Source: Thermovirgaceae bacterium
GTDB lineage: Bacteria > Synergistota > Synergistia > Synergistales > Thermovirgaceae
DNA length: 52,764 bases
Reading direction: 5' to 3'
NCBI GenBank assembly: GCA_046542505.1
Contig: JBKHBH010000005.1
Span: 1 to 52,764, forward strand
The position numbers and the translations under genes are program-made. Under the pieces are notes generated by a model. The model was not told where the DNA came from and ran no database searches. It saw nothing but the letters and a program-made list of their open reading frames with translations. Of the stretch, positions 5,100 through 8,086 are shown piece after piece (position 1 is the first letter of the stretch; each line of letters opens with the position of its first letter).

Positions 5100-6491
5100 A
5101 TGAGCAAACAGAAAATGGTGCACCCATACATCCCGAATTCAGACCCCCGAATTCAGAAAGAGATGCTGGAAGCCATCGGCGTTTCGGGCATAGACGAATT
5201 CTACAAGGGCATTCCTGAAGAACTTCGCGTGAAAGGATTGCTGAAACTTCCCGAAGCGCTTTCGGCTGAGTGGGACCTGAAACGGCACGTGGAAGACATG
5301 ATGCAGGAGAACACCTCCTGCCGCGACTCTCTGAGCTTTCTCGGCGGCGGCTGCTGGCAGCACCATGTGCCTGCCGTCTGCGACGAGATAAACAGGAGAT
5401 CGGAGTTTTTGACGGCTTACGCCGGAGAACCCTACGAGGATCACGGAAGATTCCAGGCGCTTTTTGAATACGCCAGCATGATGGCCGAGCTCGTTGATAT
5501 GGATGCCGTCAACGTCCCCACGTATGACGGATCACAGGCGGCTGCCACGTCGATCCGCATGGCATCCAGGATTACGGGGCGGAAAAGGGTTATTGTCGCG
5601 GCGAATGCTCATCCCGACAGGATCAGGGTGATCGAAAACTATTGCGACCCGGATATTGCCGTCGATCTCGTGAATTTCGATGAAAATACGGGAACCGTGG
5701 ATATCGGGAAGGTCGAAGCAGCCCTTGGCGATGACACAGCCGCCGTCTACATCGAGAACCCTTCCTATTTCGGCACTGTTGAGGCCGAAGGCGGGAAAAT
5801 AGCCGAAAAGGCTCACCAGGCCGGGGCGCTGCTTGTCGTGGGCTGCGACCCCTCGTCCCTTGGAGTCTTCGCACCACCGGCGAGTTACGGCGCTGATATT
5901 GCCTGCGGCGACCTGCAGCCTTTGGGAATGCACATGTATTACGGAGGGGCCCGGGCGGGTTTCATCGCCACCAGGGATGAGGAGAAATACGTTTCCGAAT
6001 ATCCTTCAAGGCTTTTTGGCATCGCTCCCACGACTCACCAGGCATGGGGTTTCGGTGACGTCGCATGGGAACGCCTGTCCTTTTCCGATCGAGAGAACGC
6101 AAAGGAGTTCGTCGGGACCGCGGCGGCTCTCTGGGCTATCACCGCCGGAGTGTACCTCGCGCTCATGGGGCCCAGCGGCATGCGGGAACTTGGAGAGGGC
6201 ATCCTCAAACGAAATGCCTATGCAAGAAAAAGGCTTTCGTCCATCCCTGGCGTGAAAGCCCTTTTCCCTGACGGAGTTTTCTTCAAGGATTTCGCCCTGA
6301 ATTTCGGCGGGACGGAAAAATCCGTGAAGGAAATCAACGAATGCCTCAGGGCGGAAGAAATCTTCGGTTGCGTGGATATTTCCGAGACGCATCCCACGCT
6401 CGGAGAAAGCGGCCTTTTCGCGGTGACCGAAATTCACACCGCGTCCGACATAGACCGGCTTGCGGACGCCCTGAAAAAGGCCGTCGCGTAA
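5100..6491 (+). CDS. gcvPA: Glycine cleavage P-protein subunit 1 (GcvPA)-like, divergent paralog
   Basis: HPYIPN N-terminus, SFLGGG..HHVPA, RSEFLTAY, YDG, ENPSYFG, GADIACGDLQPLG, AVTEIHT; substrate-site motifs are altered (see findings). Confidence 0.85.
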   Translation: MSKQKMVHPYIPNSDPRIQKEMLEAIGVSGIDEFYKGIPEELRVKGLLKLPEALSAEWDLKRHVEDMMQENTSCRDSLSFLGGGCWQHHVPAVCDEINRRSEFLTAYAGEPYEDHGRFQALFEYASMMAELVDMDAVNVPTYDGSQAAATSIRMASRITGRKRVIVAANAHPDRIRVIENYCDPDIAVDLVNFDENTGTVDIGKVEAALGDDTAAVYIENPSYFGTVEAEGGKIAEKAHQAGALLVVGCDPSSLGVFAPPASYGADIACGDLQPLGMHMYYGGARAGFIATRDEEKYVSEYPSRLFGIAPTTHQAWGFGDVAWERLSFSDRENAKEFVGTAAALWAITAGVYLALMGPSGMRELGEGILKRNAYARKRLSSIPGVKALFPDGVFFKDFALNFGGTEKSVKEINECLRAEEIFGCVDISETHPTLGESGLFAVTEIHTASDIDRLADALKKAVA

Positions 6492-6523
6492 AAACGTGAT
6501 TCTTGACAAGGGAGTTGAATGAC

Positions 6524-8086
6524 ATGGGAATGAATATAGATTCCAAGCTCAGGGATTTTCATCAGGCACGCTGGGACGAACCGATCATATACGAGATTTC
6601 GAAACCGGGAGAAAGAGGCGTATTGGTCCCGGAGTTCGGCGGCGATGACGCTGATGTGCAAATACCGGAAGGGATGAAACGCAACAGCGAACCGAACCTC
6701 CCGGAGATGGGGCAGATGCGCGTGTTGAGACATTACCTTCGGCTTTCCCAGGAAAATCTTGGCGCCGACCTCAATATTGACGTCGGCCAGGGAACATGCA
6801 CCATGAAGTACAGTCCCAAAATTAACGACCAGCTCGCGGCGAACCCGAAGGTGACCGAACTGCATCCCCGCCAGGATGAATCGACCGTCCAGGGAATTCT
6901 CAAGATGATTCACGAGACGGAGCTTTACCTTCGGGAAATATCCGGCATGGATCGGTTCTGTCTGCATCCGGGCGGCGGATCCCATGCGCTGTTGACAATA
7001 GCCTCAATCATCAGGAAATGGGTCGACAGCAGGGGTGAATCTGAAACGAGGGATGAAATCATCACCACCATTTTTTCCCATCCCTCAAACGCGGCTGTAA
7101 GCAAGCTGAAGGGTTTCAAGGTGATCACCATCTATCCCGGAGAAGACGGCCGTCCGGATATTGAAGCCCTCAAGGCCGCCGTTTCGGAACGGACCGCGGC
7201 GCTTTTGATCACCAATCCGGAGGATATAGGGATCTACAACTCGAGGATCAAAGAGTTTACGGACATTGTTCATGAAGCCGGCGGCATCTGCAGCTACGAC
7301 CAAGCCAATCTCAATGGGATCATGGGCCTTACCCGGGCCCGTGAGGCTGGGTTCGATCTTTGTTTCTTCAATCTCCACAAGACCTTCTCGGCTCCTCATG
7401 GTTGCGGCGGCCCCGGAGGCGGCGTGGTTGGAGCCACGAAGGCGCTTGCGGAGTTTTTGCCCGTGCCGCTGGTTTCTTACGACGCGAAGGGTGAACGCTA
7501 TTTCCTCGATTACGATGTGCGGAACACCATCGGCAAAGTCAAGGATTTTTATGGTGTCGTACCGGTTATCCTGAAAGCTTACGCATGGATCCGCAGTCTG
7601 GGGGCGGAAGGCCTTCTCGAGGCGGCGAAGGTAGCGGTACTGAATAACAATTACGTGTTCAAAAAAATCCTTGAAATCAGAGGCTGCTCGGCACCATACG
7701 CGGAAGGTGAGCTGAGGGTGGAACAGGTCCGTTACAGCTGGGAAGAATTGACCCGGGAAACGGGTATTACCACGGGGGATATCCAGAATCGCATGTTTGA
7801 CTTCGGCGTTCATTACTGGACGAGCCATGAACCCTGGATCGTCCCCGAGCCTGTCACCATCGAGCCTACCGAGTCTTATTCCAAGGACGAGCTCGACGAG
7901 TTTGTCGCCATACTCAAACATGTGGCCGGGGAAGCCTATGAAAACCCCGAGATGCTCAAGACGGCGCCCCATAAGAGTACTATCCACCATGTGGATCACG
8001 ACTATCTTGACGATCCCTCGAAGTGGGCCATGACATGGAGGGCGTACAAGAAGAAATTCGACGGTTATTTCGAGCCGAAGAAGTAG
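6524..8086 (+). CDS. gcvPB: Glycine cleavage P-protein subunit 2 (GcvPB)-like, divergent paralog
   Basis: [22 protein letters not shown], PLP-lysine motif [24 protein letters not shown].ELD. Start set at ATG 6524 (GGGAG RBS); TTG 6503 is an alternative. Confidence 0.85.
   Translation: [520 protein letters not shown]

Follow-up and report, generated by a model that had tools for sequence, protein, structure and literature searches.

The closest known system to the gene pair described here is the two-subunit P-protein GcvPA/GcvPB (EC 1.4.4.2), with structures from Thermus thermophilus (1WYT/1WYU/1WYV). Two further systems resemble parts of its surroundings. AcoX proteins belong to acetoin dehydrogenase operons. 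Tdh/Kbl take L-threonine to 2-amino-3-oxobutyrate, and PdxB/SerC/PdxA lead from 4-phosphohydroxythreonine to 3-amino-2-oxopropyl phosphate. We analyzed a stretch of 52,764 nucleotides, hereafter the window, which comprises positions 1 to 52,764 of contig JBKHBH010000005.1 (assembly GCA_046542505.1) from a Thermovirgaceae bacterium of the phylum Synergistota. At 5100..8086, it carries two adjacent genes whose products have the same alpha/beta architecture and lengths as GcvPA and GcvPB. The pair is likely to be a pyridoxal phosphate (PLP) enzyme module that serves a purpose other than glycine cleavage and works independently of the lipoyl-carrying H-protein (GcvH).

The GcvPA-like subunit (PA) is encoded at 5100..6491 on the plus strand and comprises 463 residues. 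The GcvPB-like catalytic subunit (PB) follows at 6524..8086 on the same strand and comprises 520 residues if counted from ATG 6524, the likely start codon, which lies behind AAGGGAG. Its open reading frame (ORF) opens at TTG 6503 (527 residues), and PB residue numbers are counted from this TTG. Neither ORF contains an internal stop codon. The PA translation reads TAYAGEPYEDHGR at residues 105-117, NVPTYDG at 138-144, GGARAGF at 282-288, and WERLSFSDRENAKEFVGT at 323-340. PB carries a 10-residue motif at 94-103, FSHPSNAA at 191-198, DQANLNG at 266-272, NLHKTF at 290-295, and PHGCGGPG at 298-305. A sequence-only reading of this DNA had listed these nine motifs as those of a pair with replaced glycine decarboxylase motifs and a preserved PLP lysine; all nine are indeed found in two intact, full-length ORFs, NLHKTF being unaltered. 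The same reading had expected automatic pipelines to call the genes glycine dehydrogenase, and they do. PA scored 484.3 against a cut-off of 364 with the NCBIfam equivalog model NF001696, PB scored 578.8 against 441 with NF003346, and close homologues in public databases (NCBI/JGI) carry glycine dehydrogenase names. Among the Pfam models, GDC-P matched PA, and GcvP2_C and Aminotran_5 matched PB, to which GDC-P gave no match.

To relate the motifs to function, we compiled column tables from 33 paralogue sequences and from 35 canonical GcvPA and 34 canonical GcvPB sequences of Synergistota. In PB, both groups share an invariant set consisting of H193, D266, N269, N290, H292, K293, P298-H299-G300, and the G-x-C-T-M-K-Y motif. 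This set includes the PLP lysine K293 (nt 7379-7381, plus strand) with the fold-type-I cofactor residues H193, D266, and H292. In PA, Y107, R325, and R331 are invariant in both groups. The canonical consensus reads T-[SA]-Y-T-P-Y-Q-P-E, N-A-S-M-Y-D-G, and G-G-P-x-F-G-F in PA and D-G-A-N-x-N-A and P-H-G-G-G-G-P-G in PB, and HMMER alignments revealed canonical motifs at all positions concerned in T. thermophilus 1WYT A/B and Synechocystis 4LGL. The consensus given in the sequence-only reading was matched by real sequences, namely 1WYT A/B, 4LGL, the Synergistota tables, and the second gcvPA of the genome itself.

Two stretches of PA are rewritten throughout the paralogue family, both on the plus strand. 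In the active-site loop (residues 105-117, nt 5412-5450), the canonical T-P-Y-Q-P-E-x-x-Q-G-T-L is replaced by [ACG]-G-(gap)-[ED]-P-Y-x-D-H-G-[RK]-F. The canonical T, P, Y, Q, E, and Q each occur in 35/35 sequences, and PA of the window has A108, G109, a gap, E110, Y112, and H115 instead. The lipoyl-channel/H-interface stretch (residues 323-340, nt 6066-6119) reads D-V-A-W-E-R-[TCL]-S-F-[AG]-x-R-E-x-A-K-E-F-V-G in the paralogue, with R-L-S-F-S-D-R-E-N-A-K-E-F-V-G at residues 325-339 of the window protein. Elsewhere in PA, N-A-S-M-Y-D-G becomes N-[VY]-[PT]-[TN]-Y-D-G, and G-G-P becomes G-G-[GA]. In PB, P-L-G-S is changed to G-Q-G-T, A-H-G-T-N-P to S-H-P-S-N-A, N-P-N-T-L-G to N-P-E-D-[TI]-G, D-G-A-N to D-Q-A-N, P-H-G-G to P-H-G-C, and P-P-T-x-Y-F-P to Y-W-x-S-H-[EH]-P. 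The new residues are themselves fixed across the 33 paralogues, both in PA (G109, D114, and G339 in 33/33, E336 in 32/33, Y112 in 31/33, H115 in 30/33) and in PB (T98, P194, E240, D241, N246, and Q267 in 33/33 each, C301 in 29/33). Thus, the differences do not reflect random drift. The loop pattern TAY-[AGS]-G-[ED]-P-[YF]-[ED]-D-H-G-R was also present in 120 of 121 PA-family proteins (the query and its 120 best database homologues, 58-100% identical), with a single protein outside the pattern. One database homologue, from Aminobacterium, is 61% identical.

The accessible part of PMC7259800 labels Y161 and Y164 of human GLDC as "active site" and I372, R373, and K376 as "H-interface", based on a homology model and docking, and lists Y164H as a disease change in nonketotic hyperglycinemia. 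In the portion available of PMC4767401, Q366, I381, and G607 of the human protein belong to a region that moves on PLP binding, with Q366 in the lipoamide channel. According to our alignment, Y164 would correspond to the tyrosine that is deleted in the paralogue PA, and I372, R373, and K376 to S329, D330, and N333 of the window protein. These three positions are variable in the paralogue, in contrast to the canonical I (35/35), R (33/35), and K (35/35). The alignments and column tables agree with the remodelled active site proposed in the sequence-only reading: the predicted PLP core is kept, and the presumed lid of the glycine site and the presumed entrance for H-protein and lipoamide are rebuilt. 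The rewritten pocket region gains four conserved acidic residues, two histidines, Arg/Lys, and several aromatic residues, which suggests that the ligand of the paralogue is polar and probably larger.

On another contig (C34:1-1836), the host genome (142 contigs, 93.5% complete) has gcvT and gcvH together with a second gcvPA, which the contig end cuts off after codon 113. This fragment has the canonical loop and reads EFYTAYTPYQPEISQGTL. A second, canonical gcvPB was not found in the assembly, most likely through an assembly gap at the contig end and not through gene loss. In the complete genome of a member of the same genus (G081), gcvH-gcvPA-gcvPB and the look-alike pair occupy separate places. 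Among 121 Synergistota genomes, GcvPA-model scores were bimodal, with 549-663 bits in 53 genomes plus the host fragment and 414-521 bits in 49 genomes. GcvPB-model scores were likewise split into a canonical (670-798 bits) and a paralogue group (507-596 bits). Every paralogue in these genomes passes the curated cut-offs, as do the canonical proteins; thus, the NCBIfam models do not separate the two groups. Sequence identities to the window proteins leave a clean gap, with 31-37% for canonical versus 44-88% for paralogue PA and 37-42% versus 52-91% for PB.

A maximum-likelihood tree was calculated from 73 rows, comprising 34 paralogue PA, 19 canonical PA (16 drawn at random from the 35, and three from Bacillota), and 10 + 10 PB sequences as reciprocal outgroup. 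In this quick search, with SH-aLRT values as support and no bootstraps, paralogue PA (98), canonical PA (97), paralogue PB (99), and canonical PB (91) each formed a single clade, and PA and PB were split with a support of 100. The paralogue is the sister clade to the canonical proteins, on long stems of 0.68-0.74 substitutions per site with support values of 97-99. Since each of the four groups forms one clade and the PA/PB split is fully supported, the topology indicates that PA and PB were already separate when their duplication gave rise to the look-alike pair. The sequence-only reading had called for a phylogeny with characterised GcvP proteins; the tree with canonical ones (Synergistota plus the three from Bacillota) recovered four clades. 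Together with the second, canonical gcv operon of the genome and the identity gap, it upholds the claim of a paralogue made there.

The strongest argument for another role comes from genomes that retain the paralogue although no glycine cleavage system was detected in them. A GcvPA match of any kind was found in 77 of the 121 Synergistota genomes and the canonical type in 54. All 54 genomes with canonical PA have GcvH above the Pfam cut-off, and its gene adjoins gcvPA wherever coordinates were compared. By GcvPA score, 22 genomes have the paralogue only, and just one of these (G037) has GcvH at the Pfam cut-off. Two others (G075 and G086) gave GcvH matches of about 20 bits, below the cut-off, and the remaining 19 gave no match at all. 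One genome (G019) has a partial PA, a paralogue-type PB, and no GcvH. GcvT was detected in none of five paralogue-only genomes tested, each of which is 99% complete. Outside Synergistota, the genome of locus L018 (G123) has the paralogue with neither canonical PA nor GcvH, and four others have both sets. In a sample of the class Clostridia, paralogue-type scores were obtained for 3 of 150 genomes, all of which also have canonical PA, so that the Clostridia provide no second test of H-independence. The counted genomes are kin, and the counts do not represent independent events. Neither gcvH nor gcvT occurs in the window or in any of 32 related loci.

The two genes form the center of a predicted five-gene operon, SDR2-SDR1-PA-PB-COG3199, which is divergent from a gene for a GntR/FCD regulator; this setting, with two short-chain dehydrogenases (SDRs) and a COG3199 kinase-like gene, went unmentioned in the sequence-only reading. 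SDR2 (3514..4260, plus strand) is a classical SDR of 248 residues (Pfam adh_short_C2, 1e-64 on ORF 3469-4260), and its start codon ATG 3514 is preceded by GAAAGGAG. SDR1 (4289..5056, plus strand; ORF opening at TTG 4229) is a classical SDR of 255 residues (adh_short_C2, 4e-67), whose best solved relative is BacC (5ITV, 173 bits). Both contain a full-length adh_short/adh_short_C2 domain. The fifth gene (8103..9224, plus strand) starts 16 nt after the PB stop codon and encodes a COG3199/AcoX-like protein of 373 residues with a GGDGT motif. Comparison with the orthologous locus L013 gave dN/dS ratios of 0.036 for SDR1, 0.054 for PA, 0.044 for PB, and 0.093 for the kinase-like gene; these ratios are rough, as dS was 1.35-2.25 and thus near saturation. 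The values point to operon genes that are in use and under purifying selection, in line with the functional paralogue postulated by the sequence-only reading.

The COG3199 protein matches the N- and C-terminal NAD_kinase domains of Pfam, and no NCBIfam model matched it at E <= 0.001. It is predicted to have an NAD-kinase fold without being an orthologue of the housekeeping NAD kinase, and sequence comparison yielded no close solved relative. The family invariants are NPxAGxGG, GGDGTAR, GVKxHS, EVxDIDE, and IGGQG..GRGNQQ. An invariant cysteine pair, serving as a dithiol in place of lipoamide, was considered and ruled out, as no cysteine is invariant. In other proteins, a COG3199-like part is joined to one of several further domains: an SDR, a PdxB-like 2-hydroxyacid dehydrogenase with DUF3410, fragments of class-III PLP aminotransferases, or S-adenosylmethionine-dependent methyltransferases. 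All of these fusions (P0126-P0139) are singleton clusters except P0137 with five members, and some may be gene-calling artefacts.

The regulator gene (2612..3259, minus strand) encodes 215 residues with a GntR domain (Pfam, 2.7e-17) and an FCD ligand domain (1.2e-28). The 255-bp intergenic region between gntR and SDR2 contains three GTATAC palindromes 9 nt apart (3443..3466). The pattern GTATACNNNGTATAC occurs at this single place in the 52.8-kb window, with 0 occurrences expected. The corresponding intergenic regions of L010-L015 and L087 also contain it, and L094 has one copy. The triple GTATAC is therefore a candidate GntR operator, to which the regulator would bind.

Related loci were compared by tblastn. 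The 36 loci searched consisted of 20 excised from Synergistota genomes and 16 taken from GTDB contigs. Omitting two duplicates (L087 of L015, L090 of L022) and two truncated loci (L012, L023) left 32 that were distinct and untruncated. PA and PB are adjacent in all 32. A kinase-like gene is present in 27 loci and some SDR in 25, of which 20 have an SDR1-like gene (at least 50% identity) and five have distant SDRs. An SDR2 orthologue (at least 62%) occurs in 15 and a GntR homologue in 16 loci. The kinase and SDR1 genes are intact in L010, L014, and L015, as judged by tblastn and direct translation. Apparent SDR-PB fusions in L100 were rejected, because the pieces lie in different reading frames and are best read as spurious ORF extensions. 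In L025 (1782-3192), from an Alkaliphilus metagenome-assembled genome, the GcvPA-like gene appears as two overlapping matches covering residues 1-265 and 256-462, as would result from a frameshift or a sequencing error.

Flanking transporters are mostly of amino-acid types: PF03553 proteins occur at six loci, Na:alanine symporters at three, SSF proteins at two, and APC, branched-chain ABC, and family-5 ABC transporters at one locus each. No sugar-type transporter was found in the annotated flanks. In other lineages, the regulators are sigma-54 activators (three loci), MerR, and PucR proteins, and amidohydrolases, aminotransferases, and Zn-dependent alcohol dehydrogenases (Zn-ADHs) are scattered over the flanks. 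Deeper branches of the paralogue group are represented by L019, L020, L021, L024, L092, L093, L095, and L097, with 44-52% identity to PA of the window; the four Synergistota loci among them that are listed in the score scan reach 414-423 bits with the GcvPA model. Their context includes Tdh-like Zn-ADHs, MerR or PucR regulators, and DUF819 proteins. For the neighboring Zn-ADHs of this deeper subclade, L-threonine 3-dehydrogenase was the best model in 4/4 cases.

Elsewhere in the window, a glycine riboswitch (25769-25874, plus strand, 67.8 bits) lies upstream of a glycine reductase cluster at 26.4-32.7 kb with thioredoxin, GrdE-like, GrdB, and GrdC/D-like ORFs. A SECIS element (29682-29719, plus strand, 51.6 bits) directly follows the end of the GrdB ORF at 29681, a placement expected if the GrdB TGA codon encodes selenocysteine. 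No glycine riboswitch was detected at the GcvP-like operon. Thus, glycine sensing in the window sits at grd and not at the GcvP-like operon. The search upstream of the canonical gcvT on L009 was equally negative, so that riboswitches provide no contrast between the two gcvP sets. Downstream of the operon, the region 9307-14507 contains genes for an FMN reductase and a lyase of the dihydrodipicolinate synthase family (both on the minus strand), a DUF72 protein, a D-2-hydroxyacid dehydrogenase, a HAD hydrolase, and an unassigned 314-residue ORF. Only the closest relatives (L010-L015) show these genes in synteny with the operon, to which they are thus probably unrelated.

The explanation that fits best is an intact two-subunit PLP enzyme that would have arisen from a duplicated, split GcvPA/GcvPB and would no longer belong to the glycine cleavage system. 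It appears to retain the PLP lysine, the Asp presumed to hold the pyridine nitrogen, and the stacking His. The alpha-subunit loop predicted to close the glycine site and the lipoamide-channel stretch modelled to meet the H-protein would both be rewritten, in an equally conserved form; their replacement is what suggests that the enzyme works without lipoyl-H-protein. The lost dependence on GcvH and GcvT, the rewriting of the pocket, and the new partners in the operon make glycine an improbable substrate. The operon may catabolize another small polar amino compound, for which a small hydroxy-amino acid or the corresponding 3-oxo compound is our favored candidate. Among possible reaction sequences, we prefer, as a tentative and by itself rather improbable proposal, four steps. 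One SDR would oxidize the hydroxyl group of a Ser/Thr-type beta-hydroxy-alpha-amino acid. PA/PB would use PLP to decarboxylate either the 2-amino-3-oxo acid so formed or the original amino acid. The other SDR would act on the amino-carbonyl product, and the kinase-like protein would phosphorylate a hydroxyl group of the substrate or of the amino-carbonyl or amino-alcohol product. Three features favor this sequence: a decarboxylase scaffold, partner dehydrogenases of a generally suitable kind, and transporters of amino-acid types. In a wider and somewhat doubtful extension, the lipoamide channel would have become a substrate channel and the lipoyl-H-protein would have been replaced by the kinase-like protein and the dehydrogenases. 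This would amount to a new way of degrading a hydroxy-amino compound anaerobically, such as 2-amino-3-oxo acids from Ser/Thr or hydroxylysine-type amino alcohols from collagen, and it would be widespread in Synergistota and occur in Bacillota and Bacteroidota as well.

Several observations weigh against a module detached from glycine cleavage. Both subunits still score above the NCBI equivalog cut-offs for GcvPA and GcvPB. The host genome has GcvH and GcvT, so that use of the H-protein is possible there, and the paralogue-only genome G037, whose locus L092 belongs to the deep subclade, has GcvH without canonical GcvPA. Likewise, L097 of the deep subclade lies near genes for lipoate-protein ligase and lipoamide dehydrogenase on the other strand, and the deeper-branch group might still use a lipoyl protein. 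The Na:alanine/glycine symporters beside three loci would fit glycine, too. The five-gene set is not obligatory, as 7 of the 32 loci have no SDR nearby and five have no kinase gene. The SDRs pass only broad, generic NCBIfam subfamily models, and all Zn-ADH scores (211-263) are below the threonine dehydrogenase cut-off of 380. Finally, the residue roles are taken from a human homology and docking model by alignment, the canonical sequences represent two phyla in the tree (Synergistota and the three Bacillota) and Synergistota throughout the tables, and the identity of the substrate is purely inferred.

Some of these points would be accommodated by a true but divergent glycine decarboxylase isozyme that shares the single GcvH and GcvT of the genome, for example under other conditions in a glycine fermenter. 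The equivalog scores, the intact PLP residues, gcvH and gcvT in the host genome, the alanine/glycine-type symporters at three related loci, and the glycine reductase cluster with its riboswitch in the same window would all suit such an enzyme. We nevertheless consider it very unlikely, since GcvH fails to reach the cut-off in 21 of the 22 paralogue-only genomes and GcvT was found in none of the five tested. Moreover, loop residues invariant in 35/35 canonical PA are replaced, as are the positions that align with the human "H-interface" residues and with Tyr164, the Y164H site (labels from the accessible part of PMC7259800). The pair forms a separate clade, it is beside gcvH or gcvT in none of the 32 loci, and the glycine riboswitch precedes grd and not the GcvP-like operon. 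Even less probable is an amino-sugar-acid pathway from glucosamine via glucosaminate and a phosphate ester to a PLP-dependent deamination, in which the SDRs would be sugar 1-dehydrogenases and the COG3199 protein a sugar-acid kinase. SDR1 and the SDR2-type orthologues tested from three related loci do pass the NCBIfam "glucose 1-dehydrogenase" subfamily cut-off (228-243 versus 215 bits), but this model is broad. The GntR/FCD type of the regulator would fit, as would Amidohydro_3 (D-aminoacylase-type) genes flanking L016 and L024 and a GH18 chitinase-like gene 7 kb from the L016 operon; according to the available part of PMC12017989, oxidized-chitin catabolism starts with a D-aminoacylase-related deacetylase. 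These supporting neighbors are confined to two loci, however, and the annotated flanks contain amino-acid and no sugar-type transporters. Many host lineages, such as Aminobacterium and Thermovirgaceae, are amino-acid fermenters, which also argues against amino sugars.

The main rival to decarboxylation after dehydrogenation takes the kinase-like gene, the most faithful partner (27 of 32 loci), as its starting point. The COG3199 kinase would phosphorylate an amino alcohol or hydroxy-amino acid, and PA/PB would act on the O-phosphorylated product as a PLP phospho-lyase or similar enzyme, with the SDRs acting before or after. The lipoamide channel would hold the substrate chain, by analogy to the true enzyme, which holds S-aminomethyl-lipoamide. 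Kinase/phospho-lyase pairs exist for aminopropanol and for hydroxylysine, and the class-III aminotransferase family, to fragments of which COG3199-like proteins are fused (P0131, P0139), holds known phospho-lyases; yet each of these fusions forms a singleton cluster and could be an error of gene calling. Six loci have PA, PB, and the kinase gene without an SDR (L021, L022, L025, L086, L089, L093), and in the window, the kinase gene begins only 16 nt past the PB stop codon, but five loci have no kinase gene at all. New conserved His and Arg/Lys residues beside the rewritten channel (PA H115 and R/K117, PB H442) could bind a phosphate group, next to which the four new invariant acidic residues (PA E/D110 and D114, PB E240 and D241) would be odd. 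To our knowledge, no GcvP relative performs elimination chemistry. We therefore regard a phospho-lyase as unlikely, though less so than an isozyme or an amino-sugar pathway.

Our literature search retrieved no published description of this GcvP-like paralogue subfamily and no publications on COG3199. PMC6615313, on sigma-54 regulons, contains no occurrence of glycine, gcv, or decarboxylase, and PMC12674515 treats only a canonical gcv operon. Reconstructions from genomes and metagenomes score the paralogue as "glycine cleavage", since its subunits exceed the cut-offs of the curated GcvPA/GcvPB models. Among the 121 Synergistota genomes, 22 would be credited with a P-protein, 21 of them lacking GcvH at the cut-off, with GcvT in 0/5 tested. 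A reductive glycine pathway or glycine cleavage deduced from gcvPAB calls, as in the accessible text of PMC11227167, could therefore mislead. A subfamily-specific model based on PA residues 108-117 and 325-339 and PB residues 194, 240, 241, 246, and 267 would mend the annotation. If the chemistry is new, the P-protein fold would gain a further type of reaction, the long-unexplained COG3199/AcoX proteins would receive a function, and a catabolic route for amino compounds in anaerobic protein degraders would come to light. The interest lies mainly in a systematic mis-annotation that distorts reconstructions of glycine pathways and in the enzyme and its COG3199 partner.

Compared with the two-subunit P-protein, which is the best solved match for both PA (235 bits) and PB (320 bits), the pair has in common the PLP lysine in NLHKTF, H193, D266, G-x-C-T-M-K-Y, and many glycines and prolines. 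It differs in the rewritten TAYTPYQPE loop and channel/interface stretch, in P194, E240, D241, N246, Q267, and C301 of PB, and in an identity of only 31-37% (PA) and 37-42% (PB) to canonical proteins of the same phylum. Thus, profile score and PLP residues place it with the P-protein, whereas the loop, the channel/H-interface stretch, the co-occurrence with H- and T-protein, and clade membership set it apart. The COG3199 protein shares with AcoX of the "ATP-NAD kinase family" the NAD-kinase fold, the GGDGT motif, and a gene position beside a relative of a lipoamide-dependent enzyme. The partner of AcoX, however, is a thiamine pyrophosphate-dependent E1, and the partner here is a GcvP-like PLP enzyme. 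The Tdh/Kbl and PdxB/SerC/PdxA routes resemble the proposed pathway in combining a dehydrogenase and a PLP enzyme with a phosphorylated or hydroxylated small amino acid. The resemblance extends to the Zn-ADH neighbors, whose best model is Tdh, and to the PdxB-like domain fused to a COG3199 protein. By curated cut-offs, however, no gene of the operon is orthologous to tdh, kbl, pdxA, or serC, and decarboxylation in these routes is spontaneous or coenzyme A-dependent and proceeds without a GcvP-like enzyme.

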